Below are positions 2,340 through 39,553 of a stretch of 64,000 nt of DNA, one piece after another. Position numbers and translations under genes: made by a program. How positions within the stretch are numbered: the stretch's first letter is position 1; every line of letters starts with the position of its first letter. Source of the stretch: an uncultured Clostridium sp. (GTDB lineage: Bacteria > Bacillota_I > Bacilli_A > RF39 > UBA660). The DNA lies in contig CABUQZ010000007.1 in the NCBI GenBank assembly GCA_902493795.1, positions 4,401-68,400 of the forward strand, given 5' to 3'. Below the pieces are notes generated by a model. It did no database searches and was not told where the DNA came from. It saw only the letters and a program-made list of their open reading frames with translations.

Positions 2340-4172
2340 ATGTCTAAAATAAAAGTAAATTATCAAAATGCTCAGACAACAGTTAATAGTGTAAAAACAT
2401 CAAATGATAACCTTAATGCTTTCTTTTCAAGCACTAGTGGTGATACTAAAAATATTAGTGATTTGATAAGCGGATTAAATATTACTTACTTTGATGGTAT
2501 GCACGATTATGTTGATAAAATGGTTACAAAAACTTCGGATTATTTAAAAGGAGCACAATATTATATTGATGGAATATCAGGAATGAATACTGATAAGCCT
2601 GGTGATTATGATGGTCCTACCTATGGTGGTAATTCAGATACTACGGCAACAGGAACTCAAGGTGATGGTGGGGCAGGAACTGTAGATACAGATGGTAAAA
2701 AAACTGAAATGCAAAGTGGAACTATGACTGGGGATTCACGAGATAGTGCTGTAAAGTCTTTACTTCAAGCTCAATTTGAAAATGGTAAAATGACTCAATC
2801 TACATATGATAGTGCTGTTGCAGCCGTAAATAATATTAATGGACAACTAGCAAATGGTAAGATGGGAGAAGATACATACGCAAGTGCAATTGCTACCATA
2901 AACAATATTACGAATCAACTAGCAAATGGTAAGATGGGAGAAGATACATACGCAAGTGCAATTGCTACCATAAACAACATTACAAATCAACTAGCAAATG
3001 GTAAGATGGGAGAAGACACATATGCAAGTGCAATTGCTACCATAAACAATATTACAAATCAACTAGCAAATGGTAAAATGGGAGAAGACACATATGCAAG
3101 TGTTATTGATACAATAAACAATATTACAAATCAATTAGCAAGTGGTAAAATGAGTGAAGAAACATACGGAAGTGTCATATCGCTAATAAATGACGTTACA
3201 AATCAACTCGCTAGTGGAAAAATGACTGAAGAAGCATACAAGAATGTTGTTTCATTGATAAATGAGATTACTTCACTTTTAGAAGAAGGAAAACTTACAG
3301 AAGAAGCTTATAAAAAAGTAGTAAAATTAGTAACAGATATTACTAAATTATTAGAAGCAGAAAAAATATCATTAGAAACTTATGAAAAAGTTGTTAACTT
3401 GGTAAGAAATCTATCTACATTATTAAAAGAAGGAAAAATATCATTAGAAACTTATGAAAAAGTTGTAGATTTACTTAATAACGTTACAGGGCTATTGTCT
3501 AATGGTACAATAGGTGAAATAACTTATGAAAAATTAATTTCAAGTATTAATAATGTCACAGAATTATTAAAAGCAGGATTAATTGATGAAGCAACATACA
3601 ATAGGACAATAGATATGATAAATTCTATGACGCAATTATTGCAAGAAGGAAAAATTGATGAAGCTACTTACGGAAAAATAATGGAATCTTTAAACAATGT
3701 CTCAAATGCTTTTGTAGATAAAAAAATATCTGTAGAATACTATAATAAATACCTAGATACACTTATAGAGTCAAATCAAGAATTCCTTGATGAAACTTGT
3801 ACTAAAGAAGAATTCGCTAGGAAAATGGACACTCAAAATAAAATTTATAGTCTTTTGGGTAATGAAGAGATACCTGAACAATTTACAAAAAATAATGTTT
3901 CTATAATGGATTTATCAGAAAAATTAGCTAACGAGAACAAGATAGGAAAAGAATTATCAACAAAAATAAATGAAACTTTAGGAAATGCTTCAACAGCATT
4001 ATTAAATGAAACTTTAACTGCAGAAGGATTTGGAACAATACAGGTCGAATTATATAATGGATTAACAAAAGGTGAATCATTTGATAATTTGAGAAGTTAT
4101 ATGGATTCCTTAGATAAATTATTTAAAACGGAAGGAAATAATAAATATGAAGTTGGTGAAACAAGCGAATAA
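2340..4172 (+). CDS. 610-aa modular protein with four parts: a WXG/LXG-like N-terminal helical region, a Gly/Thr/Asp-rich linker, about 14 tandem 24-aa SHOCT-like repeats, and a unique C-terminal region
   Basis: Strong SD (AGGAGG) 7 nt before the ATG. The N-terminus MSKIKVNYQNAQ resembles WXG100-type starts. The repeat unit is G-K-(M/I/L)-x-x-E-(T/A)-Y-x-x-(V/I)-(I/V)-x-x-(I/V)-N-x-(I/V)-T-x-(L)-L-x-x. Confidence 0.7.
   Translation: MSKIKVNYQNAQTTVNSVKTSNDNLNAFFSSTSGDTKNISDLISGLNITYFDGMHDYVDKMVTKTSDYLKGAQYYIDGISGMNTDKPGDYDGPTYGGNSDTTATGTQGDGGAGTVDTDGKKTEMQSGTMTGDSRDSAVKSLLQAQFENGKMTQSTYDSAVAAVNNINGQLANGKMGEDTYASAIATINNITNQLANGKMGEDTYASAIATINNITNQLANGKMGEDTYASAIATINNITNQLANGKMGEDTYASVIDTINNITNQLASGKMSEETYGSVISLINDVTNQLASGKMTEEAYKNVVSLINEITSLLEEGKLTEEAYKKVVKLVTDITKLLEAEKISLETYEKVVNLVRNLSTLLKEGKISLETYEKVVDLLNNVTGLLSNGTIGEITYEKLISSINNVTELLKAGLIDEATYNRTIDMINSMTQLLQEGKIDEATYGKIMESLNNVSNAFVDKKISVEYYNKYLDTLIESNQEFLDETCTKEEFARKMDTQNKIYSLLGNEEIPEQFTKNNVSIMDLSEKLANENKIGKELSTKINETLGNASTALLNETLTAEGFGTIQVELYNGLTKGESFDNLRSYMDSLDKLFKTEGNNKYEVGETSE
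2778..3791 (+). repeat. In-frame 72-bp (24-aa) tandem repeat array, about 14 units
   Basis: Unit starts at 2844, 2916, 2988 and 3060 are almost identical at the DNA level (CAACTAGCAAATGGTAAGATGGGAGAAGA(T/C)ACATA(C/T)GCAAGTGCAATTGCTACCATAAACAA(T/C)ATTAC(G/A)AAT). Later units keep the period but diverge. Confidence 0.9.
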
Positions 4173-4252
4173 TTATCAACATAGTAGTTATCACCACTTG
4201 TTGTCAATAGACAATAAAATCCGATAATTATTGTAAAGCGTTGTTAAGTTTG

Positions 4253-4282
4253 TTGACAATAAATGAATGTAAATAATATAAT
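4253..4282 (+). promoter_or_regulatory. sigma-A-type promoter for the small-protein operon
   Basis: TTGACA (4253-4258), 18-nt spacer, TATAAT (4277-4282), about 25 nt before the ATG at 4308. Confidence 0.5.
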
Positions 4283-4307
4283 TAAATTAAAGTAATAGGA
4301 GGATTAT

Positions 4308-4676
4308 ATGACATATAATACTAAGATAAATTATAAAGTTTTTTACAACTTCGAAGAAGTAGCAGCTGGTGGAAGTGGTGGAGAATGGGAACTTTCTATT
4401 GATCCTGATGGACTTGAGGCTGCAGCAAAAGAATACACAGACGCAGCATCAGCATATGGTTCAGCATTAAATGAGCTTAAAAAAACCTTAGACAGCGCCT
4501 TAAATATATGGGATGATAAATCGAAAGATACTTGGACACAGAAGGTAAAAGATGCTAGAGATAATTTGCAAGCAGTATGTGATGCAATGGATTTAAATAG
4601 TAAAATACTAAAAGAAATTTCTGATGCGGCTTCTGCAACAGAAAGTAGCGTTTCTACAGGAATTAGTAATATTTAA
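4308..4676 (+). CDS. WXG100-like small helical protein, type A (pair 1)
   Basis: 122 aa. AGGAGG SD. It shares KI(N/K)YK-F---EE, a (I/V)D-D-L block and a central W-D-(D/N)...(W/F)--K turn with the ORF at 5208. Confidence 0.5.
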   Translation: MTYNTKINYKVFYNFEEVAAGGSGGEWELSIDPDGLEAAAKEYTDAASAYGSALNELKKTLDSALNIWDDKSKDTWTQKVKDARDNLQAVCDAMDLNSKILKEISDAASATESSVSTGISNI

Positions 4677-4691
4677 TAGGAGGAAAAGACT

Positions 4692-5108
4692 ATGGCAATG
4701 AAAGTAAGATATACAGAACTAGGAAGATATGGAGCTAAAATAGGAGTAGATTTGGAAAATTTAACAACTGCCTTAGAGAAAGCAAAAAGTGCTGGAGAAA
4801 ATGCTATTGCAGCAGGTGGAGGAGCAGGAACTGGAGTTGGAAGTGCAATTCAAAGTTCAATTGCAAGCTTTCCTGTAGACCAACATGGTAACGCAGTAAA
4901 AGTAATAGGTGAATTGCAAGCAGCGTTAGAAGGGGTTTCTAAAACTTATGGTCAAGCAGATTCTGATTTGATTAGTCAAATTAATGCAATAAAAGCAAAA
5001 GCTGATGCTTTAGTAGCTGCTCAAAACGGTGGTGGAGGTGCTACATCAAGTGGTACTTTAGGTGGCAGTGCGTCTGTTTCTAGTAACTTTACAAAAGCAG
5101 CATATTAA
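4692..5108 (+). CDS. WXG100-like small helical protein, type B (pair 1)
   Basis: 138 aa. Start MAMKVRYTEL resembles EsxA/YukE-type starts (MA--I-V-pEEL). C-terminal YGQADSDLISQINAIKAKA is shared with the ORF at 5588 and contains YxxxD. The tail is Gly-rich. Confidence 0.5.
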   Translation: MAMKVRYTELGRYGAKIGVDLENLTTALEKAKSAGENAIAAGGGAGTGVGSAIQSSIASFPVDQHGNAVKVIGELQAALEGVSKTYGQADSDLISQINAIKAKADALVAAQNGGGGATSSGTLGGSASVSSNFTKAAY

Positions 5109-5162
5109 CAACCACTTTTTAAAATTCTAATATCAAAGCTTAATTAACAAAGTTATATCAAA

Positions 5163-5193
5163 AAAGCACATAACAGAAATATGTGTCTTTTTA
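5163..5193 (+). terminator. Intra-cluster hairpin plus T-run (possible attenuator between pair 1 and pair 2)
   Basis: AGCACATA-ACAGAAA-TATGTGTCT followed by TTTTT. It covers the ORF-track start at 5181, which argues for the ATG at 5208. Confidence 0.4.
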
Positions 5194-5207
5194 AAATAGG
5201 AGGAGTT

Positions 5208-5585
5208 ATGTTCTCTTTAAATAATAAAATTAAATATAAAGAGTTTCATCATGTTGAAGAACCTATTATGTCAGATGGAAGTTCCGATAGTAGCAGTATT
5301 TTGAATGTCGATACTGATATGCTTGCAACCTATGGAACATATCTTAAAAATCTTAAGACAACACTTGATAATTCACTTGATAGTCTAGAAACTCAAATGG
5401 CATTAATTACAGAAGGATGGTCTGATAATGATGGTGCTGCCTTTCAAACAAAATTTTCAAGTTTTGTTAAAGAATCTAAAAAAATATCTGATGAAATGAG
5501 TGGACTTGGACAATATGCAACAACAGAAGCTTCAAAATATGATACCATCTTAGAAGAAAGCGTCAGAATGATGGGTGAGGATTAA
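5208..5585 (+). CDS. WXG100-like small helical protein, type A (pair 2)
   Basis: ATG 5208 lies behind AGGAGG. It is a paralog of the ORF at 4308 (KIKYKEFHHVEE; LNVDTDML). The central EGWSDNDGAAFQTKF resembles the W-x-G..F turn. Confidence 0.5.
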   Translation: MFSLNNKIKYKEFHHVEEPIMSDGSSDSSSILNVDTDMLATYGTYLKNLKTTLDNSLDSLETQMALITEGWSDNDGAAFQTKFSSFVKESKKISDEMSGLGQYATTEASKYDTILEESVRMMGED

Positions 5586-5587
5586 AT

Positions 5588-5917
5588 ATGGCAAATATTT
5601 CAGTTAGTTCAAGTAAAGTGAAAGCAACTTTAGCAACAATAGATACAACATATCAAGCTTTAGAAACGACTCTAAAAGAAATGGAAAAATCCAAAGATAA
5701 GCTTTCACAGTTTTGGAGTGCTAAAGAGGCTACAGCTTTTTGCGTCAAACTATCTCAGTTGTCAACGCACGTACAATCTTTCAAAGATAAATATAATTCT
5801 TTTGTTGCATTTATAAACGATGTGCTTGATACATATAGTACATCTAATACAGACTTAATATCGACAATTAATTCAATTACAGCAAAAGCTAAATCTGAAG
5901 AAACTAGTACTCAATAA
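5588..5917 (+). CDS. WXG100-like small helical protein, type B (pair 2)
   Basis: 109 aa, starting 2 nt after the previous stop. Central QFWSAKEATAF at residue ~43 resembles EsxA NWEGQAFSRF. C-terminal YSTSNTDLISTINSITAKA is paralogous to the ORF at 4692. Confidence 0.55.
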   Translation: MANISVSSSKVKATLATIDTTYQALETTLKEMEKSKDKLSQFWSAKEATAFCVKLSQLSTHVQSFKDKYNSFVAFINDVLDTYSTSNTDLISTINSITAKAKSEETSTQ

Positions 5918-5927
5918 TTTGTAAATT

Positions 5928-5963
5928 ATGAATAAGAAAAATTAATTCTTATTCATTTTATTT
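5928..5963 (+). terminator. Rho-independent terminator
   Basis: Perfect 11-bp stem ATGAATAAGAA / TTCTTATTCAT followed by TTTTATTT. Confidence 0.75.
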
Positions 5964-5990
5964 GACATAAGAAATAAAAAAAGATAAAAT
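5962..5990 (+). promoter_or_regulatory. sigma-A-type promoter
   Basis: TTGACA, 17-nt spacer, TAAAAT, immediately after the terminator and upstream of the 464-aa gene. Confidence 0.5.
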
Positions 5991-6028
5991 CAACTTATAA
6001 ATAATAGAAAAAACTATTGGAGAATAAT

Positions 6029-7423
6029 ATGGCCACAGAATCTGAAATTAAAAATTATAGTACATTATTATCTGATACAAAAATACAAGGATTAAAGAAT
6101 GTTAAACAAACATATGTTAATCAAATTTCCCAAGCAAAAACAGATTTGGACAAAGCCGATTTTACAGATTGGGATGATTCAGTATCAACTAAATTTAAAA
6201 ACCATTATGATGCTTTAAAAACAAATTATTCAACAATTGCAACCGATGTAGGAGATGGATCAAATTTAGATACCCTTATTACATTAGTTAGTGGACTAAA
6301 AACGAAGTGTGATGAATATTTAAATTATCTCAATGAATACAATTCGATTTCAACAGGTGTCTATTTTTCTGATGAAAAATTGAAAAAAGAATATAATGAT
6401 TATAAAAATGGTACAAAAAAATATAAAGACTTGTCACAGAGTGTTAAAAATGCAATAAATAATAACAACAGTAAATTAAAAAGAAAAGAAACATTGGAAG
6501 GATTAATGGATTCTTGTTCTTCAACAATAGATACAACTTTATCTAATATTAAATCAATTACTTTTAATGCATCAAGTGAACAAACAGCAGGTATCCAAAC
6601 GGACTTCACTGAAGAAACAGTTCCACAAGACAATGGGCACTTAACATCTGAACAGGTAAAAGGACAATATCAAAGTAGTAAACAAAAACTTGATGACTTG
6701 CTTGCAACACTAAATTCAATAGATTTAAATTCACCAGATGCTTTTGAGAAAATAAATGCATTATATCCAGAAATTATAAATGTATTTCGTGAGTATTCTG
6801 ATGCATTATTTTTAATGTACTTAAAAGGAGAGGTATCATATAATGAGTATGTAACTTTATCTAACACAGAGAATATGACAATTGTTGAAGGTATGCAAAA
6901 TAAAAATGCTTATAGGTTACTAGAAACTTATTCAAATTCACAAAATCAAGATAGTTTGAATTCTTGGTATAATCAAAATGATGAATATAGGACTTTTGCA
7001 GAGCGATTCAACAATAAAGGTTGTTCAAGCCAAGAATTTTTGCAAAATGTTCCACCATTGAGTGCTTTGAGTCAAGAAGGAGCTATTCTTGATTATAATA
7101 GTGTGGAATCCGCTTCTCAGTATGCTGTTGCTTCTTTAGTAGAACTTCTAGAGAATGGTTATACTGGTGACGTAGATTTAATAGCAGATAATTCAACTAA
7201 CGACACCTTTTATAGTTTTAACAATAAAGCAGGAGACACATGGTTGTGGTCAGGTTTTATGGATAGCGCAAAATATATAAACAATACATATGTTGACCAC
7301 TATTACAATAATGGTGGAGCTTTTAATGGTAACAATAATACAACTACACAGGAAGGTGGATCAGGAACACATACATCACAAAGTGGCGAAGTACACGGTG
7401 GTGGAGTTGGTAGAGAATATTAA
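6029..7423 (+). CDS. 464-aa protein with a WXG/LXG-like N-terminal helical domain and a Gly-rich C-terminal tail (candidate secreted effector)
   Basis: ATG 6029 lies 7 nt after GGAG. The N-terminal region has FTDWDDSVSTKFKNHY (W-D-D..F turn, as in the type A proteins). The protein ends ..QEGGSGTHTSQSGEVHGGGVGREY. I recognise no enzymatic motif. Confidence 0.45.
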   Translation: MATESEIKNYSTLLSDTKIQGLKNVKQTYVNQISQAKTDLDKADFTDWDDSVSTKFKNHYDALKTNYSTIATDVGDGSNLDTLITLVSGLKTKCDEYLNYLNEYNSISTGVYFSDEKLKKEYNDYKNGTKKYKDLSQSVKNAINNNNSKLKRKETLEGLMDSCSSTIDTTLSNIKSITFNASSEQTAGIQTDFTEETVPQDNGHLTSEQVKGQYQSSKQKLDDLLATLNSIDLNSPDAFEKINALYPEIINVFREYSDALFLMYLKGEVSYNEYVTLSNTENMTIVEGMQNKNAYRLLETYSNSQNQDSLNSWYNQNDEYRTFAERFNNKGCSSQEFLQNVPPLSALSQEGAILDYNSVESASQYAVASLVELLENGYTGDVDLIADNSTNDTFYSFNNKAGDTWLWSGFMDSAKYINNTYVDHYYNNGGAFNGNNNTTTQEGGSGTHTSQSGEVHGGGVGREY

Positions 7424-7533
7424 CTAATATTAAAGTGAAATAAAAATTAAAGTACATAGAAAATACTATAATAATAAATTATTTACTTATACATAAATAG
7501 GAGAATAAACAAATCAAAATAGGGGGAATTAAT

Positions 7534-7830
7534 ATGGCACTACAAATAACAAATATAGAGGATTTAAAAAGTTCTCAAGCGTGTATTCTTGAAGCAAAAA
7601 CATCTTATGATGAAATATTAACAAAGTTAAGAAATGCTGTTGTAGATACAGAAAACTACTGGAATGATACAGACTCTTATCAATATAGAGAAAAACTATT
7701 AAATTTAATTGACAATGAATTATCTAATGTGTCAAATGAATTAGAATTCGAGTCATCATTTTTAAAGAAAACTTATTTAACACTTGAAGATGCTAAAACT
7801 CAAGTAAAAAACAGGTTAAATGGTGAGTAG
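7534..7830 (+). CDS. WXG100-like small helical protein, type B (pair 3)
   Basis: 98 aa. GGGGGA SD. Start is MALQITNIEDL. W (ENYWNDTDSYQY) lies near the middle of a predicted helix-turn-helix. Confidence 0.45.
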   Translation: MALQITNIEDLKSSQACILEAKTSYDEILTKLRNAVVDTENYWNDTDSYQYREKLLNLIDNELSNVSNELEFESSFLKKTYLTLEDAKTQVKNRLNGE

Positions 7831-7841
7831 GAGAAAAAAAT

Positions 7842-8219
7842 ATGAATGAAAATAAAATTGTATCAAATAATTCACTAGATGTAGATCCAGATAAATTACA
7901 AAACTTAGTTAATATAATAAATAAAAGTGTTACAGATTTAAGAAATGCTAAAAGTAAAGCAGATGAAGCATGGACAAGGTGTGAATCATCCTTAGGAGCA
8001 ACATTTACAAAAACAATCAATGAAAGAAAAATTAAAACAAATGACTCATTCAATAATGCTTTAAGTGAACTAGAAAATAGTGCAAATGTCTTGAATAGTG
8101 TAACAAGTATTTGGAAGGAAACAGAGTCTGAGATTTTAAGATCTTCTAATTCGATAGATGACTATATCTTAAATGTTAGCAATAAAATAGCATCAACATT
8201 TAATAATTTAAAAAAATAA
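7842..8219 (+). CDS. WXG100-like small helical protein, type A-like (pair 3)
   Basis: 125 aa. LDVDPDKLQNL matches the (I/V)D-D-L block of the ORFs at 4308 and 5208. A central ADEAW turn is present. Confidence 0.4.
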   Translation: MNENKIVSNNSLDVDPDKLQNLVNIINKSVTDLRNAKSKADEAWTRCESSLGATFTKTINERKIKTNDSFNNALSELENSANVLNSVTSIWKETESEILRSSNSIDDYILNVSNKIASTFNNLKK

Positions 8220-8227
8220 CAAAAATT

Positions 8228-8257
8228 AACCTCTTACATATAATTATGTAGGAGGTT
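8228..8257 (+). promoter_or_regulatory. Hairpin whose 3' arm contains the SD of the spoVIF-like gene
   Basis: AACCTCTTAC-(10 nt)-GTAGGAGGTT, a 10-bp stem with one G-U pair, followed by TTTTAAATG (start at 8262). Confidence 0.5.
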
Positions 8258-9965: not shown

Positions 9966-10607
9966 ATGGAAGAAAAAGTACCTAATGAGGAAGTAAAAGA
10001 AGCTCCAAAAAAGAAAAATAATGGAATGTATCTTGTTGTAGCTGCAGTATTATTTATTTTGGTTGGTGTAGGATTAATCGTAACAGGAAATAATAAAAGC
10101 TTTTTAAATAATGATGAAAAAGAGAAAGAAAAACAAGATGTTGTTGATGAACCTAATAAAGGAAATAAACCAGCTGAATTAACTGATGAAGAAGTAGAAA
10201 AAATATTAAAAGATCAAAAAGAAAAAGAATTAAGCACTGAAACATGGAACATTGGTATGGCTAATATAGTAGCTAAAGGTGATAATAATTCATATTTGGT
10301 ATTATACGAAGAAATGTTAGAAGATGGAACAGTTACTGTTAAACAAACAGTTGTTGTAATGGAAAATGGAGAAGGAAAAGCTGAATTACCAGGATGGGTT
10401 GAAGGAGAAAAAGATTTATCTGCATATAACTTTGTTAATGTAGATGAACCAACAACTCCAACAGAACCAACAACACCAACAGAACCAACAACACCAACTG
10501 AACCAACAACACCAACTGAACCAACAACACCAACTGAGCCAGCAACACCAACTGAGCCAACAACACCAGTTGAACCAACAGCTCCAGTTGAACAACCTAC
10601 AGAATAA
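9966..10607 (+). CDS. membrane-anchored protein with a C-terminal (T)EPTTP tandem repeat
   Basis: 213 aa. One TM (MYLVVAAVLFILVGVGLIVTG). C-terminal EPTTPT x8. Confidence 0.55.
   Translation: MEEKVPNEEVKEAPKKKNNGMYLVVAAVLFILVGVGLIVTGNNKSFLNNDEKEKEKQDVVDEPNKGNKPAELTDEEVEKILKDQKEKELSTETWNIGMANIVAKGDNNSYLVLYEEMLEDGTVTVKQTVVVMENGEGKAELPGWVEGEKDLSAYNFVNVDEPTTPTEPTTPTEPTTPTEPTTPTEPTTPTEPATPTEPTTPVEPTAPVEQPTE
10446..10589 (+). repeat. 18-bp in-frame tandem repeat (GAACCAACAACACCAAC(A/T)), about 8 units
   Basis: Seen directly. It encodes EPTTPT units and generates the spurious ORFs 10214..10624(-) and 10444..10635(+). Confidence 0.9.
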
Positions 10608-33470: not shown

Positions 33471-35798
33471 TTATGGATTTAAACTAGGTTCATTTCTATC
33501 TTGTGAAGGTGCTTGAATTTCTGTTGATTCTTCGTTGCCACTAGAACCACTAGAACCACCAGAACCTTCCTCTGTGCTACCACTAGATTCACCAGTATTA
33601 CCAGTATTTCCACTAGGATTATCTCCAGAGCTACTACCTGTATTACCACTAGACTCACCAGTGTTTCCACCGGTATTACCAGCTTCTTCTCCGCCACCTT
33701 CAGAAGAATTTTTTTCTTTAGCAATTGTAAATGACATCGATAAGCTCTTATCAAGCATTTCTTTTACTGTAGTTCCTTGAGGAACTGTCTGTTCCATAAT
33801 AGTTCCTTCTTTTTCTGTTGAGCTTTCTACATAAGTGGATTTACCAGTACTTATCATATTAGAAAATCCATTTGCCCAAGCAAGATACTCATCATAAGTT
33901 TTACCAACAAAATTAGGAACAATGCAAGCCTTGTTTAATTCTTCTTTAGTACAATCTACTTTAGTAGGGGCACTAGCTTCATTTTTAACAACTTTTAAAG
34001 TTATTGTCCTGTCAGCTATTAAATCGATTCTTTTGCTTTCTGGATAGTTTTGACTAATAATAGTACCATTTGATTTGCTTTTGTCTACAACATATTCTGG
34101 ATTTAATTTAACTCCATTTTGATTTGCCCAAATTTGAGCTTCAGAATACTTCATACCAACTAAATCTTTAACAAGTTTATATTTAACAGTACCATAATAT
34201 CCTTTTCCTATTACAGATGTTTCATAATTTTCTCCTAATTTATATGAGAAAGATTTAATTAGTTGAGGCTCAACTCCACTTAAATTATCTTTCATAGCTT
34301 TTTTAACAGCATTAAGACTCTTTGTATTTAAAATATAATCCCAAAGAACTAATCCACTTCTTTCATCATAAATCATTTGACCAGTTCCATCTAAATATAG
34401 TTTTTGAATAGATAAAACTTTATCACTTGAAGAAGATATTAATACATCTTTCGCTATATTGTAGAAAGATAAAATTGTATCTTCACTCATATTAGTATCA
34501 AAGTTTTTAGATATAACATCTAATAATTTCTCTAAATCATCAATAGAGGAGAAGTTTTTCATTTTATCAAGTATAGCTTGAATAACTTCTTGTTGATGTT
34601 CAGATCTTACAAAGTCACTTCTTTCTCCATAAGTCCATCTTTTTGCACAGTATTGTGAATTACTTTTTCTATTTCTTGCAAATGCTAAAGCTTTTTCACC
34701 ATCTAATCTTTGTCTTCCTTTTGTAATGTATATTGTGTGCTCATCAAATCTTCTATGACTATCTTGTTCACACATATCATAAGGAACATCTACTACTATT
34801 CCATCAAGAGCATTAACTAAATCAACAACTCCTGTGAAGTTTATCTTCATATAATAGTCAATTTTAATATCTAAAAAGTTTTGAATAGTGTTTATAACAC
34901 ATTTAGTTCCATTAGCTGCAGAGTGAGTTATTTTATTATCTACATTTTTCATACAAGAAATAGGTACATAACTATCTCTTGGAATACTTAACATAGTAGC
35001 ACTCATTGTAGAAGGATTAAATGTTACAACAATTAATGAATCTCCATTAAATGAATCAGCATGTTGTAATCCACTAACAGTTGAATCAATACCAATTAAT
35101 AAAACAGTAAATGGTTCTGATACATCTTTAGAACTACCACTTAAATGAACTTCTTCTTTAGTAACTTCCTTTTTCGTTGTATCTACAATTACAAGTTTAC
35201 TACCAATATCTTCAAATTCTTCTCTTGTGCTATAGACATCAACGAAATTAGTTGGTAAGAAAGCGTAATCAATTTCCTTGTTATAAAGATCAAGAATCAT
35301 CTTTGAATCACTTTCGTAATCTACCATTTTATTATTTTTATCTAAAGAATACTTTTTAATAATATCTTCAGATAGATTTTCTATATCTCCATCAGCACTT
35401 ATTCCAATTTTTTTATCTTTCAATGTTGATAGATTAACATCTTTATTTTCTTTTAAGGATACCAAACTAGTAGAGTAGACTACTTTTTTGTTTAAACCTG
35501 AAAAATAAGAATATATTTTATTTAGATTGTAACCTAGAAATATAAATAAAATTGAGAATACAATCAACACACCTGAATAAGCATACCTTTTTTTCTTTTT
35601 CTTCTTCTTATTGTTTGTACTTAAAAACATTTTAGCAAGAATCAAAATATCGATTAATACTATAACACCAATTATTATATATCTTATAAGTGTTTCAATC
35701 TTATTAAACAATAATATAGACTGAATTAGATATATAGATGTAATGATAAATATCACTGCAAATATACTACTGTAATGTATTTTTACTTTTTTCTTCAT
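33471..35798 (-). CDS. LytR-CpsA-Psr (LCP) family phosphotransferase with PASTA-like modules and a Gly/Ser/Asn/Thr-rich tail
   Basis: N-terminal TM helices. LCP core (FTVLLIGIDS, DSLIVVTFNP, SIPRDSYVP). PASTA-like modules VKDLVGMKYSEAQIWANQNGVKLN and VPNFVGKTYDEYLAWANG. 775 aa. Confidence 0.75.
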   Translation of the reverse strand: MKKKVKIHYSSIFAVIFIITSIYLIQSILLFNKIETLIRYIIIGVIVLIDILILAKMFLSTNNKKKKKKKRYAYSGVLIVFSILFIFLGYNLNKIYSYFSGLNKKVVYSTSLVSLKENKDVNLSTLKDKKIGISADGDIENLSEDIIKKYSLDKNNKMVDYESDSKMILDLYNKEIDYAFLPTNFVDVYSTREEFEDIGSKLVIVDTTKKEVTKEEVHLSGSSKDVSEPFTVLLIGIDSTVSGLQHADSFNGDSLIVVTFNPSTMSATMLSIPRDSYVPISCMKNVDNKITHSAANGTKCVINTIQNFLDIKIDYYMKINFTGVVDLVNALDGIVVDVPYDMCEQDSHRRFDEHTIYITKGRQRLDGEKALAFARNRKSNSQYCAKRWTYGERSDFVRSEHQQEVIQAILDKMKNFSSIDDLEKLLDVISKNFDTNMSEDTILSFYNIAKDVLISSSSDKVLSIQKLYLDGTGQMIYDERSGLVLWDYILNTKSLNAVKKAMKDNLSGVEPQLIKSFSYKLGENYETSVIGKGYYGTVKYKLVKDLVGMKYSEAQIWANQNGVKLNPEYVVDKSKSNGTIISQNYPESKRIDLIADRTITLKVVKNEASAPTKVDCTKEELNKACIVPNFVGKTYDEYLAWANGFSNMISTGKSTYVESSTEKEGTIMEQTVPQGTTVKEMLDKSLSMSFTIAKEKNSSEGGGEEAGNTGGNTGESSGNTGSSSGDNPSGNTGNTGESSGSTEEGSGGSSGSSGNEESTEIQAPSQDRNEPSLNP

Positions 35799-35822
35799 AT
35801 GTCCTCCATCAAAAAAAGAAGA

Positions 35823-37424
35823 TTATTTGTTTTTTCTTTTTTGAATTTTCGAAATATCTCTTTTGATTTTACCATCTTTTTTCTTTTTTTTATCACTTTC
35901 TTTATTATTTATTTCATTTTCTTCGATATTTAAATCATTTTCGATATTTTCTTTTTCATCTAGTAGTTCTATTTTTTCATTATTTTCTTCATCTTCTTTT
36001 TCACTTTCAACTAAATCTTCATTTTCTTCTTCTTTTAGTTTACCACTTAAATCGTCAAGATCTTTAGTTTCTTCTACATCGTATATTTTATTTTTTTTAG
36101 CTAATTCTTCATCACATCTATTTGGAAATGCGATACATTTATTTTTCTTTCTTTTTTTATTTCTAATTGTTGATACTAATAAAACCAAATAAGTAATTAT
36201 TAATAGCCCTCCAAGACCAATTATAACGTAAAGAGATTTATTGTTTTTTATATTTAATTCATTAATCTTATCGATTGGTTTGGTATTAAATCTCTGTATA
36301 GTTCTTTCTTTCTCATCATATTGATATAAATGTTCTTCACCAGTTGATATATTAACTGCATTTATAAGGTAAAACCCATCATTTATTCCTTGTGCTTTAT
36401 AAGCAGTTACTTCTTCTTCATCAATTTTTATTTTAGTTTCTTGATATCCTGTTGGAATATCATTTGTATTAGTTATTGTTACTATAAGTGAATCAAAGTT
36501 AAAGTCTTTATATGGTGAATAATTACCATTATCATATGAATAAAGAGCGATATTTCCAGATGCATCTTTTAAACCAACGAGTGTAGTGTTTGTTTTTTCA
36601 TTAACAAATGCAGGAACATCTTCTTGATCTATTTTTATTGTTGATTCTACAAAGTTGCTGTTTGGATTTTTTATTAATTCTTTTTTTCTTACAACATTGA
36701 ATGTTTGTCCCTCTTTTTCTACAACGATAGGTTTTAATTCTTTTACTGTTACATTTAATGTATAAGTTTTAGAACTTCCATTTTGAGCAGTTACTTTAAT
36801 GTTTATTTTGTTAACTCCTTCAACTAAAGAGTGCTTTCCAAGGCCTGACACAGAAGATTTAGAATCTTCAACTGCTCCAGTAACATTGATTGATCTAATA
36901 TTATTTTCAAGTTCTAATGAATAGTTAACAGTATTTTTATTAAAAGCAGGGGATATCTTATATCCATCAACTCCCAATTTGGATAAGTTATTATTTTTAC
37001 TATAAGATCCTTCAAGTTGAGCTTGCGTTATTATATTTAATGTTTTAGTTTTATTAGAAAAACTTAATGGTTTTAGATTTGTATCATATGCTTCATTTAC
37101 CTTAAAGGTTATGTTTGCATTTCCTTTAGCTTTGGCTCTAAATTTAAAAGTCAAAGTATATGAAGTCTTTCCATAATAATTATCTGTAATATCATTAAGA
37201 GTTCCACTTACATGGGTAAGTTTACTAGAATCGTATGTTACCGAGTAATTAACTGCCCCAATTGGTGTAGAACTAGATAACTTAACAGAAAATGTAACTG
37301 TATTTCCTACAACTGCTTGGCTAGTACTTAAATATGCCGTAACGTTAAGCGTTGCTGCATAACAGATAATGCTTCCTGTAAAAAACATTACAAGTGATAA
37401 TATTAATAGTTTAATTTTTTTCAT
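35823..37424 (-). CDS. membrane-anchored cohesin-domain protein with a cadherin-like beta-sandwich module and a K/E-rich cytoplasmic tail
   Basis: Signal peptide. Cohesin-like LNVTAYLSTSQAVVGNTVTFSVKLSSSTPIGAVNYSVTYDSSKLTHVSG..GNANITFKV. Cadherin-like NNLSKLGVDGYKISPAFNKNTVNYSL..KTYTLNVTV. C-terminal TM followed by a charged tail. Confidence 0.6.
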   Translation of the reverse strand: MKKIKLLILSLVMFFTGSIICYAATLNVTAYLSTSQAVVGNTVTFSVKLSSSTPIGAVNYSVTYDSSKLTHVSGTLNDITDNYYGKTSYTLTFKFRAKAKGNANITFKVNEAYDTNLKPLSFSNKTKTLNIITQAQLEGSYSKNNNLSKLGVDGYKISPAFNKNTVNYSLELENNIRSINVTGAVEDSKSSVSGLGKHSLVEGVNKINIKVTAQNGSSKTYTLNVTVKELKPIVVEKEGQTFNVVRKKELIKNPNSNFVESTIKIDQEDVPAFVNEKTNTTLVGLKDASGNIALYSYDNGNYSPYKDFNFDSLIVTITNTNDIPTGYQETKIKIDEEEVTAYKAQGINDGFYLINAVNISTGEEHLYQYDEKERTIQRFNTKPIDKINELNIKNNKSLYVIIGLGGLLIITYLVLLVSTIRNKKRKKNKCIAFPNRCDEELAKKNKIYDVEETKDLDDLSGKLKEEENEDLVESEKEDEENNEKIELLDEKENIENDLNIEENEINNKESDKKKKKDGKIKRDISKIQKRKNK

Positions 37425-37435
37425 TTGTTAACCTC

Positions 37436-39553
37436 CTAACCCTGACTGATATTAGTTTGTTTTAAAATATGTTTTTTAACATATAGTAAATCAAGAGTAT
37501 TAATAGTTCCATCTTTGTTAACATCAGCAGCTTGCTTATATGCTCCAGTTAAATTAAATTGTTTTAATATACTTTTTTTAACGTTTAGTAAATCAAGTGT
37601 ATTTATAACACCATCACCATTTATATCTCCATATATAACTATTTCGACTACTTTGGTATTTCCATTACTTGAAACAGTTACTTTATCACCAGTTACTACA
37701 ATTCCAGTAGTTTTAGGTTTATTATTTCTATCTGTAATATTTACTGTAACAGTAGGAGAGTTTTTAAGTATATTATTAATTACTGTATTAACACTTGTTC
37801 CTAAAGTTATTTTTGAAATGTATTGTCCTTTATAGTTATATCCAGATTTTTTAATTACATCATCTAAATTTACTACAATAGGTTCATCTGGTGTAATTGG
37901 TGTATCAGGAGTGTCAACATTTTCTCCTGGTTCTTCATCTTCGATAGGTGGAGTAACAACTTCATCTGGTTTCTTTCCTCTAATAATAGTTAATGAATAT
38001 GTTCTAACACTTTTATTTTGTGCTGTAACAACAACGTTAGCAATAGTTTTCTCATCAGTTAATGGAATACTTCCAACACCAGATATAGTAGCTTTTGAAT
38101 TAATACTTGTTGCACTTATCTGAACAGATTCAGCATAAGGAATATTAATTGTATAATTTGACACTTCGTTATTAAAGTTTGTTACAAGCGAATTATTTAC
38201 TTTTAAATCTTTTAAATAGTTATTTGGATTTCCTAAATTTGGTAATTTAGTACTTTCAGGCATTCCTTCAAAAACTGGAATAACAAATACGAAATCTTTT
38301 TCTATTAACCCAAATTTATTATATGAGTTATATGCAGAAACAGCAGGGGATGTTAAGGCATCTACATTAGTTGTGTACTGATGCCAATTTGGTTTTGTGG
38401 CATTTATTGATACATTAAATTTTTGAAAATAAGAAGTTTGCTGTCCACAGTTTACGTAACGTTCTGATACAAATGTTGATCCTTCAACGATTGCTTTTTG
38501 AGGTGTGTTCCAATTACTACTTTTAGCATATTTAAGTGACATTAACTTAGGGTTAGTTGATGAAGAAGCACCAATATTAAAGAAGTTATAATATCCAGTG
38601 TAATTAACTCCATCAGATAACACTCCAGCTTTTCCATTACTACATATATTATTAGTAGAAGTTCCAACTTCTTGTTTAACTAGTGAAGCAAGAAATATTG
38701 GAGAAACTTTGCTTCTTTCAGCTGCTTCCATAAAATAACTAGTATATTGTTTTAAGAAATCAGAAGAAAGAGTGTTTCTAGTAACATCACTTGTTTGATA
38801 TGTAGGATGATAAAATAATTCTTCAAACATAAAGATGCTTTTTTCTGTTAAAAAGTTTCTAGGATCAAGAAAATATGAAACAGTTTCGCTATTTGCTTGA
38901 TACCAATAATCACCATCATGTCTAATAAAAGTATCTGTATCATGATTGTAATCTGGCTCTAGTGTAGATAAATAACCTTCATACCCATTAGCAGCATCTG
39001 TTGGTGAAACATGATATAAATTATTCCCTGACGAATTTTGATACTCTAAAGTCTTTGACCAAGACTCTTTTGTTTTAATACCTTTAAATATCCAAGTAGG
39101 ATGCTTTTTGTGTAATTCTTTTAATTTTACTTTATAGCTTTCTGGAAATCCTTGAGAATTTAGATAAGCATCAAACTCTTCATCTGTCATTGCTGCCATC
39201 TGTTCTCCAGTTTCGCTAATTTCTGGAGATGGATTTTCTACTTCGGGCACATCAACTGTCTTAATATCGACAATAAAAGTTGAACATACATAACCCTGTA
39301 TATTATCAGCAGATTTAATTTTAACCCATTTATCATCACAACCATTACCACTTTCCGCATATTCAAGTATTGTAACAATTGAGTCGTGCTCTGCATTACC
39401 GATTTTTTCATAGTTAGTTCCAGGATTACTCCTAATTCTTAAACTAGGTACAGCGTCAACTCTTCCTACAGTAACTTGCACTGCGTAACTGTGTCTTGGA
39501 AGAAGTGCTAATGAAAACACGATAATAAACAAAATTGTTTTACATTTTTGCAT
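37436..39553 (-). CDS. secreted SH3b + GH73-like N-acetylglucosaminidase + cadherin-like module + C-terminal dockerin
   Basis: Signal peptide. SH3b-like (LRIRSNPGTNYEKIG..VKI..GYV). GH73-like block (SPIFLASLVKQEVG..GYYNFFNIGA). Dockerin duplicated Ca-binding loops DINGDGVINTLDLLNVKKSIL and DVNKDGTINTLDLLYVKKHIL. Confidence 0.7.
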   Translation of the reverse strand: MQKCKTILFIIVFSLALLPRHSYAVQVTVGRVDAVPSLRIRSNPGTNYEKIGNAEHDSIVTILEYAESGNGCDDKWVKIKSADNIQGYVCSTFIVDIKTVDVPEVENPSPEISETGEQMAAMTDEEFDAYLNSQGFPESYKVKLKELHKKHPTWIFKGIKTKESWSKTLEYQNSSGNNLYHVSPTDAANGYEGYLSTLEPDYNHDTDTFIRHDGDYWYQANSETVSYFLDPRNFLTEKSIFMFEELFYHPTYQTSDVTRNTLSSDFLKQYTSYFMEAAERSKVSPIFLASLVKQEVGTSTNNICSNGKAGVLSDGVNYTGYYNFFNIGASSSTNPKLMSLKYAKSSNWNTPQKAIVEGSTFVSERYVNCGQQTSYFQKFNVSINATKPNWHQYTTNVDALTSPAVSAYNSYNKFGLIEKDFVFVIPVFEGMPESTKLPNLGNPNNYLKDLKVNNSLVTNFNNEVSNYTINIPYAESVQISATSINSKATISGVGSIPLTDEKTIANVVVTAQNKSVRTYSLTIIRGKKPDEVVTPPIEDEEPGENVDTPDTPITPDEPIVVNLDDVIKKSGYNYKGQYISKITLGTSVNTVINNILKNSPTVTVNITDRNNKPKTTGIVVTGDKVTVSSNGNTKVVEIVIYGDINGDGVINTLDLLNVKKSILKQFNLTGAYKQAADVNKDGTINTLDLLYVKKHILKQTNISQG

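Follow-up and report, generated by a model that had tools for sequence, protein, structure and literature searches.

Do eight genes lodged between der and the sporulation genes spoVIF and spoIVA encode substrates of a protein secretion pathway, and if so, of what kind? The question arises from a 64-kb stretch of contig CABUQZ010000007.1 from an uncultured Clostridium sp. (the window, in whose positions all coordinates are given). Positions 2340-8219 of this window hold a cluster of eight genes, all on the plus strand: three pairs encoding proteins of ~100-140 aa and two genes encoding large proteins of 610 and 464 aa. An earlier note on this DNA, hereafter the original prediction, described them as possible substrates of a type VII secretion system (T7SS), with WXG100-like proteins in pairs and two large WXG/LXG-like proteins sharing related N-termini. 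We lean slightly towards the view that this is an effector locus in the style of the type VIIb system (T7SSb), comprising two cargoes with distinct helical N-terminal carrier domains and three WXG100-type partner pairs. What stands of the substrate reading is the WXG100 links, the conserved adjacent pairs beside two large proteins with helical N-domains and no signal peptide, and the modular family of the 464-aa protein; the LXG assignment and the relatedness of the two large N-termini fell away.

We labelled the genes L610, A1, B1, A2, B2, L464, B3 and A3, the small ones after the A and B classes of the original prediction. L610 (2340..4172, 610 aa) is followed by A1 (4308..4676, 122 aa), B1 (4692..5108, 138 aa), A2 (5208..5585, 125 aa), B2 (5588..5917, 109 aa), L464 (6029..7423, 464 aa; gene callers start at the ATG at 6029, not the TTG at 6017), B3 (7534..7830, 98 aa) and A3 (7842..8219, 125 aa). 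Each B gene adjoins an A gene, as had been pointed out, with intergenic gaps of 15 nt (A1/B1), 2 nt (A2/B2) and 11 nt (B3/A3). The reading frames and motifs quoted in the original prediction were all recovered at their coordinates, apart from part of one A-type motif treated below. Signal peptides and transmembrane segments are absent from all eight proteins (maximal 19-residue Kyte-Doolittle mean at most 0.84), while the adjoining membrane proteins reach 2.5-2.9 by the same measure. For comparison we used 98 related loci with 6,156 open reading frames (ORFs), designated by L and a number (such as L009), 80 of them found by a SpoIVA anchor and L089, L092 and L094 through the L464 family.

Judged by profile score, three of the six small proteins are members of the WXG100 family. 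Against a Pfam cut-off of 27.3 bits (PF06013), A1 scores 33.0 bits (E 7e-8), A2 30.2 bits (E 5e-7) and B2 29.5 bits (E 9e-7), each in a near full-length alignment; all three stay under the stricter NCBIfam cut-off (44.85 for TIGR03930, a model that A1 matches with an E-value of 3.5e-8). B2 also matches NCBIfam ESAT6_2 (E 4.6e-9, under that model's cut-off) and shows a weak full-length match to DUF5344, the Lap3 family (E 0.016). When a combined profile of A1, A2 and their orthologs was searched against the PDB sequences, the top entries were Bacillus anthracis EsxB, Streptococcus agalactiae gbs1074 and SAG1039, and ESAT-6 (E 0.0025-0.04). By alignment A2 is a paralog of A1, and B1 is a paralog of B2. 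A1 carries a 28-aa N-terminal extension (KINYK...EE) and has W-D-D at its turn, where A2 has W-S-D; the (I/V)D-D-L block attributed to the A-type proteins occurs as SIDPDGL, NVDTDML and DVDPDKL, and KINYKVFYNFEE and KIKYKEFHHVEE are present as described. The further motif W(D/S)D..F, claimed for two A-type proteins, fits A2 (5208) and fails in A1 (4308), which has W in place of F.

The B-type N-termini MAMKVRYTEL, MANISVSS and MALQITNIEDL were confirmed, as were QFWSAKEATAF in B2 (5588), which contains the F-W-S-A turn, and NYWNDTDSYQY in B3 (7534). B1 and B2 have in common the C-terminal motif Y-x-x-x-(D/N)-x-(D/N)-L-I-x-x-I-N, represented by YGQADSDLISQINAIKAKA in B1 (4692) and YSTSNTDLISTINSITAKA in B2 (5588). 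In B1 a Gly-rich loop takes the place of the Trp turn, and the C-terminus consists of the YGQAD...LISQINAI motif and a Gly/Ser-rich tail. B3 is EsxA-like and the most conserved member of the cluster, with 85-93% identity where L464 has 51-67%. It aligns with the A-type profile over the Trp core (hhalign probability 88%, E 3e-6), and in the database of 6,156 ORFs the A-type hidden Markov model (HMM) gives B3 matches at E 3.5e-7 to 2e-9 (3.5e-7 for the window protein). A3 is helical, with W44 and W91 as invariant Trp residues; it is only weakly tied to the superfamily, and its profile matches B1 orthologs and B1-type proteins at E 7e-7 and 4e-4. The division into A and B classes is therefore ambiguous for the third pair, as B3 matches the A-type profile and A3 matches B1-type proteins; its labels track N-terminal motifs, not core similarity.

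A Trp stands at the aligned turn position in five of the small proteins (A1 WDD, A2 WSD, B2 WSA, B3 WND and A3 WTR) and is missing from B1, and the Gly of WxG is absent in every copy in the window. The B3 orthologs of other genera (L009, L012, L016, L017 and L092) possess the canonical W-x-G where the window B3 has W-N-D. Because of the profile cross-hits and the W-x-G of these orthologs, all six small proteins are best regarded as a single divergent set of the WXG100 superfamily. The claim of six WXG100-like proteins thus holds at the Pfam cut-off for A1, A2 and B2, with B1, B3 and A3 linked via profile cross-hits only.

Of the two putative cargoes, L464 founds, as far as homology searches reach, a rare and unannotated family. 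A word-indexed search returned seven close homologues of L464, four of B3 and one for the N-domain profile, all from close relatives, and an exhaustive HMMER search of 1.84 billion representative proteins identified 26 L464-family members. Scans of the GTDB representative genomes for the family and of JGI metagenomes for the N-domain gave no match. The conserved N-domain (residues 1-182, nt 6029-6574) has invariant W48, D50 and F179 and the family motif DFSGWxDxVS...GNL..LI...LK.KC.EY...I..I..I.F; over ~175 aa it is predicted by AF2 as six helices (pLDDT 93.7). Two family members match WXG100 weakly around the invariant Trp (E 0.0012 and 0.006). The N-domain is unrelated to that of L610 (hhalign probability 0.15%), contrary to the original prediction.

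What follows the N-domain differs from one family member to another. All 25 of 25 remote members match the profile from position 1 to ~215 only and have unrelated C-termini, and homology between window L464 and the protein of L009 is confined to residues 1-214. The members in L009 and L092 are homologous over their whole length, C-terminus included, and behind each lies a 159-163-aa gene; these two genes are homologous to each other (38% identity, E 2e-38), and the one in L092 scores above the Pfam threshold for GNAT. In L094 the family member ends in another C-terminus, and the next gene encodes a zinc-ribbon protein with ~4 hydrophobic, probably membrane-spanning, segments. In these relatives the C-terminus of the family co-varies with the downstream gene, much as in an effector-immunity pair, which makes the downstream genes candidate cognate genes. 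In the window protein, residues 201-325 (nt 6629-7003) are hypervariable between strains: protein identity there is 24-60% within one species, against 97-98% for the flanking DNA (window versus L002). This segment is a hot spot of recombination or diversifying selection. Residues 326-435 form a conserved orphan C-domain with an invariant C332. The full-length AF2 model was mediocre (pLDDT 66) and gave no Foldseek match.

The other large protein, L610, is built of repeats behind a helical head. The head (residues 1-85) is related to the B-type WXG100-like proteins (hhalign probability 47%); its profile matches B2 orthologs at E 8e-6 to 3e-4 and finds no significant match among PDB sequences, and the same head is kept in the large proteins of L009, L092 and L094. 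A G/D/T-rich linker (residues 86-135) leads to ~16 SHOCT-like 24-aa repeats (residues 136-470; unit G-K-M-x-E-E-T-Y...), encoded by a 72-bp tandem unit at 2801-3467, and the tail is helical. In Pfam the window protein stays under threshold for SHOCT_2 (E 0.0098) and SHOCT (E 0.84), and the 756-aa ortholog of L094 reaches 52.8 bits for SHOCT (PF09851) against a cut-off of 27. In L092 an L610-type head is placed on different repeats, and among strains of one species the protein measures 586 or 610 aa, a difference of one repeat unit. SHOCT is usually a single short C-terminal module; the 24-aa unit of L610 resembles SHOCT-type models and occurs in ~16 tandem copies after a WXG100-like head. Among the contigs from three look-ups of related sequences, those beginning within the large repeat gene all come from Logan (L003-L008), and the long ENA scaffolds span the repeat. 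A unit-like motif, K-K-E-I-S-N-E-Y-Y-I-Q-K, also SHOCT-like, is seen in the adjoining 67-aa protein, whose gene (2047-2250, +) overlaps the der stop codon and is kept 3' of der even in cluster-free relatives (43-65% identity).

The closest analogy for such an arrangement would be the tripartite complexes of LXG effectors and Lap proteins. LXG effectors require two cognate small helical Lap proteins encoded just upstream, and LXG modules are scattered away from the essC cluster (PMC10801868); examples from S. intermedius are TelA-LapA3-LapA4 and TelC-LapC1-LapC2 (Klein et al. 2024, PMC10801868). L464 is likewise large, lacks a signal peptide and combines a conserved helical N-domain of ~175-200 aa with a C-terminus that is interchangeable within its family. 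Two small helical genes, A2 and B2, lie directly 5' of it, as their counterparts do in L009 and L094, some family members have a cognate downstream gene, the module lies away from any essC cluster, and B2 brings its weak full-length resemblance to Lap3.

The likeness has limits, several of which weigh against our reading. Pfam LXG (PF04740) was matched at E <= 0.01 by none of the 26 L464-family members, so that L464 would work like an LXG protein and not be one; the original prediction had placed it among WXG/LXG-like proteins, and its likeness to solved LXG and PPE structures is generic. Against PDB sequences the family profile found no LXG chain and no type VII secretion protein, its best matches being weak (best E 0.025) and to unrelated coiled-coil proteins. 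Foldseek with the N-domain model returned generic long helical bundles, BAR domains first and none at E < 0.1. The partners are of WXG100 type, not DUF3130, DUF3958 or DUF5082 nor Lap1 or Lap2, and the most variable part of L464 is its central segment instead of its C-terminus. The orphan C-domain of window L464 is conserved, and no immunity-like gene adjoins L464, as the original prediction had also observed: the 110 bp separating it from B3 hold no ORF.

Two further comparisons concern the Esx and PE-PPE proteins. Staphylococcus aureus has the Esx pairs EsxA/EsxC and EsxB/EsxD, which the cluster resembles in protein size (~100-130 aa), in combining a WXG100 member with a more divergent helical partner, in having several pairs per locus, and in the C-terminal Y-x-x-x-D/E-like motif of B1 and several B-type orthologs. 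Bacillus subtilis YukE, to which the same comparison extends, is reported to be an ESX substrate (PMC4010439). Unlike these proteins, which are encoded inside or beside the ess or yuk machinery operon, the window genes have no machinery in view; the WxG Gly is replaced in all of them, and the N-termini of A1 and A2 are extended by 28-30 aa that orthologs in other genera lack. Mycobacterial PE-PPE heterodimers (PE25-PPE41, PDB 4w4k) are elongated multi-helix bundles, a form that the L464 N-domain model may resemble, and PPE41 is among its Foldseek matches (TM 0.44-0.46). That match is non-significant (E 0.4) and stands behind those to BAR domains. The sequences show no similarity, and PE-PPE proteins belong to another phylum and T7SS subtype.

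Generic bundles of this sort raise the possibility that helical, low-complexity proteins of an AT-rich genome give compositional matches and nothing more. Every scan did produce many low-scoring matches to unrelated coiled-coil families, Foldseek yielded generic bundles only, and B1, B3 and A3 reach no curated family threshold and have no Pfam or NCBIfam WXG100 match, either singly or via orthologs, a point that also counts against our own reading. PDB sequence searches with the B3 and A3 profiles gave no significant match. We nevertheless consider chance resemblance highly improbable, as A1, A2 and B2 independently exceed the Pfam WXG100 cut-off over nearly their full length, the top PDB matches of the A-type profile are all Esx proteins, B3 orthologs have the canonical WxG at the aligned Trp, two L464-family members touch WXG100 at their invariant Trp, and gene order, pairing and the order within pairs are kept across genera.

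Machinery was sought in the visible part of the genome, ~74 kb made up of the 64-kb window and 10 kb upstream. No EssC-, EsaA-, EssA-, EssB- or YukD-like gene was found there, in line with what had been noted for the window, the related loci show no EssC-like ATPase within 10 kb, and none of the 6,156 ORFs of the 98 loci has at least two Walker A motifs. EsxA-like genes normally adjoin the machinery, and it is notable that even the EsxA-like B3 has no machinery near it. The complete chromosome of a relative, which is without the cluster, measures only 1.31 Mb, so the lineage has little room for accessory machinery. These observations weigh against our reading and would suit a helical-hairpin system independent of the T7SS, in which the pairs are intracellular chaperones, adaptors or scaffolds for the large proteins, or in which the proteins leave the cell by lysis, mother-cell lysis or an unrecognised exporter. 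The absence of any machinery gene near cluster members in the 24 of 98 loci that carry them speaks for such a system, as does the occurrence of B3/A3 alone between housekeeping genes in L012, L014, L015 and L016. The best PDB sequence match of the B3 profile points the same way, although non-significant (E 0.054): it is Helicobacter pylori HP0062, which we take to be an ESAT-6-like helical hairpin of an organism without a known T7SS.

We regard such a T7SS-independent system as unlikely all the same. Polymorphic C-termini, each with a cognate downstream gene, and strain-level diversification are typical of exported, interaction-facing proteins. WXG100 members co-occur genome-wide with FtsK/SpoIIIE-type ATPases, and effector modules are often remote from the core genes. 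The ~74 kb in view are a small part of a genome of roughly 1.3 Mb (size taken from the relative), so the absence of machinery from them says little; it is also weak evidence because LXG modules typically occur dispersed, at a distance from the essC cluster (PMC10801868). Rather less likely again, in our estimate, is that cluster-bearing genomes are without any EssC-type machinery, in which case a full WXG100/LXG-like effector toolkit of three helper pairs, a polymorphic effector family and a repeat-fibre protein would work without a canonical T7SS, being exported by an unknown route or forming an intracellular or mother-cell assembly.

How the cluster is distributed bears on whether it belongs to sporulation. 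Records of the lineage come from gut and rumen metagenomes and are labelled uncultured Bacilli, Erysipelotrichaceae, Tenericutes or Clostridium sp. CAG:710; the lineage may belong to the order RFN20. HMM searches found no cluster member in 74 of the 98 loci, so the cluster is accessory and dispensable for sporulation in this clade; most of the 80 SpoIVA-anchored loci have der, spoVIF and spoIVA adjacent and no cluster. The original prediction was right in seeing an insertion at the der...spoIVA block, although close relatives, not B. subtilis, are the proper comparison. The order of all eight genes is kept in other species, L009 having the full set. L017 has A1/B1 and B3/A3, and L010 and L013 have none of the genes. 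L092 has the order der, a B3-like gene, a 121-aa gene, two WXG100 genes, a 741-aa protein, two L464-family genes, a GNAT-like gene and spoVIF; L094 has the 756-aa protein, four small genes, the effector and the zinc-ribbon protein. In L089 an L464-family gene stands next to recX with no small partner genes nearby, and the N-domain profile additionally picks up a 776-aa ORF ~1.2 kb upstream. The cluster is thus an accessory, mosaic island specific to the lineage and not a core sporulation module.

The transcription signals mark out, at the level of consensus matches, three vegetative-looking units of sigmaA-type promoters and terminators, all signals on the plus strand. A terminator hairpin at 2249-2269 closes der and the 67-aa gene and precedes a sigmaA-type promoter-like site 5' of L610 (2276..2304, TTGCTA-17-TATAAT). 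After L610 comes a stable terminator-like hairpin (4181..4234, z-score -5.65), followed 5' of A1 by a promoter with a perfect 12/12 match (4253..4282, TTGACA-18-TATAAT), both hexamers of which are invariant across three species. A terminator hairpin with a U-rich tail (5928-5956) follows B2, with the L464 promoter directly behind it (5962-5990, TTGACA-17-TAAAAT), an arrangement kept in L008 and not in L005. Between A3 and spoVIF lies a perfect 13-bp hairpin (8228..8257; -18.4 kcal/mol, z-score -5.8) in which the GGAGG ribosome-binding site of spoVIF lies; UUUU comes next, and then the spoVIF ATG. This hairpin may terminate transcription of the upstream genes, control the translation of spoVIF, or both, and it marks the cluster boundary. 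A regular-expression search for sigmaE-, K-, F- or G-like sites, which is a weak test in AT-rich DNA, found none in the intergenic regions.

Distribution and signals both bear on a sporulation-linked role, in which sporulating cells would produce the proteins for use in spore assembly or at the spore surface; a role at the spore surface had been suggested in the original prediction. B3/A3 lie directly 5' of spoVIF in the window and in L005, L008, L009, L012 and L014-L017. In B. cereus EsxA1 and EsxA2 are needed for efficient sporulation, a double esxA deletion delaying and reducing it, and both are EssC-dependent and encoded in a T7SSb cluster (PMC11406982). The two cases have in common WXG100 proteins in a spore-former, the link here being adjacency to spoVIF and spoIVA, and a structural role of L610 is conceivable because it is a long repeat protein without an enzymatic domain. 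Most relatives that bear the sporulation genes lack the cluster genes, however, in contrast to the B. cereus case. The 74 loci with no member include most of the 80 SpoIVA-anchored ones, many of which have der, spoVIF and spoIVA together, and in L092, L094 and L089 the members lie away from spoVIF or in another context. The promoters fit the sigmaA consensus, and a strong hairpin separates A3 from spoVIF. On distribution, promoters and hairpin the spore-surface role is disfavoured, and we judge it improbable.

For the T7SSb-style effector locus, the mechanism might be as follows. A lineage-specific accessory locus would encode the cargo of a type VIIb-like pathway together with its targeting factors, and any machinery would be found in another part of the genome. 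L610 and L464 would be the exported cargoes, L610 as a repeat-rich, fibre-like protein and L464 as a modular effector whose middle diversifies and whose C-terminus can be swapped. Each would carry an N-terminal helical targeting domain. The WXG100-type pairs A1/B1, A2/B2 and B3/A3, probably translationally coupled, would bind each other and the N-domains of the cargoes. The resulting elongated helical bundles would constitute a composite signal for secretion, comparable to the role of Lap pairs with LXG toxins. B3/A3 is the pair with the highest conservation and the widest occurrence and might serve as an EsxA-like general substrate. We infer in this scheme the pairing of the small proteins, their binding to the large proteins, export, and an antagonistic or surface function.

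Several other features were seen in and around the locus. The upstream flank consists of der and the 67-aa gene, and the downstream flank has, in order, spoVIF, a 190-aa membrane protein, a racemase, a 213-aa membrane protein, spoIVA and hup. The 213-aa protein (9966-10607, +) is membrane-anchored and lies just 5' of spoIVA; its C-terminus is a (TPTEPT)n tract that corresponds to an 18-bp tandem repeat in the DNA (10445-10580, 7.6 copies), and the protein has 207 or 213 aa depending on the strain. In L015 (4474-7125) and L014 (89-2590) a Cys-rich protein fills the slot between the 67-aa gene and B3/A3, so that the same island site accepts unrelated cargo; it has 883 aa and a prepilin-type N-terminus (GFTLIE...) in L015 and is cut at the contig start in L014. 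In L089 (8910-11923) rpoZ is duplicated on either side of recX and the 504-aa L464-family gene, which suggests insertion by duplication or recombination there. L092 (9406-11502) encodes directly after spoVIF a 698-aa protein that is absent from the window, has no Pfam match on record and contains ~17 tandem copies of a ~33-aa helical repeat (...I.E..C.E..I...G.IF.R...EI.EI...). We rejected a phage or defence-system origin of the cluster: PHROGs gave sub-threshold repeat matches only, and PADLOC and a viral-contig scan gave none. Farther away, at 33471-39553 on the minus strand, the window holds a run of surface-type proteins, among them a LytR-CpsA-Psr protein of 775 aa that has PASTA domains, a cadherin-like protein of 533 aa and an SH3 protein of 705 aa whose C-terminal end is a type I dockerin, a module that would not be expected in gut Bacilli with small genomes.

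Systems of this kind are known, and the novelty lies in both carrier-domain families, in the joining of a WXG100 head to SHOCT-like repeats, in the host lineage and in the machinery being completely absent nearby. Most of what is known about type VIIb effectors comes from cultured staphylococci, streptococci, bacilli and listeriae; the locus suggests that a diversified set of effectors is also maintained by an uncultured gut lineage with a reduced genome. Its two N-terminal carrier domains, a 175-aa DFSGWxDxVS domain and a WXG100-like head on SHOCT-like repeat arrays, lie outside every curated family. The hypervariable segment of L464 and the variation in repeat number of L610 point to selection at an interaction surface, which is relevant to strain competition in the gut. 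The locus also offers a natural test of whether WXG100/LXG-like modules exist without EssC.

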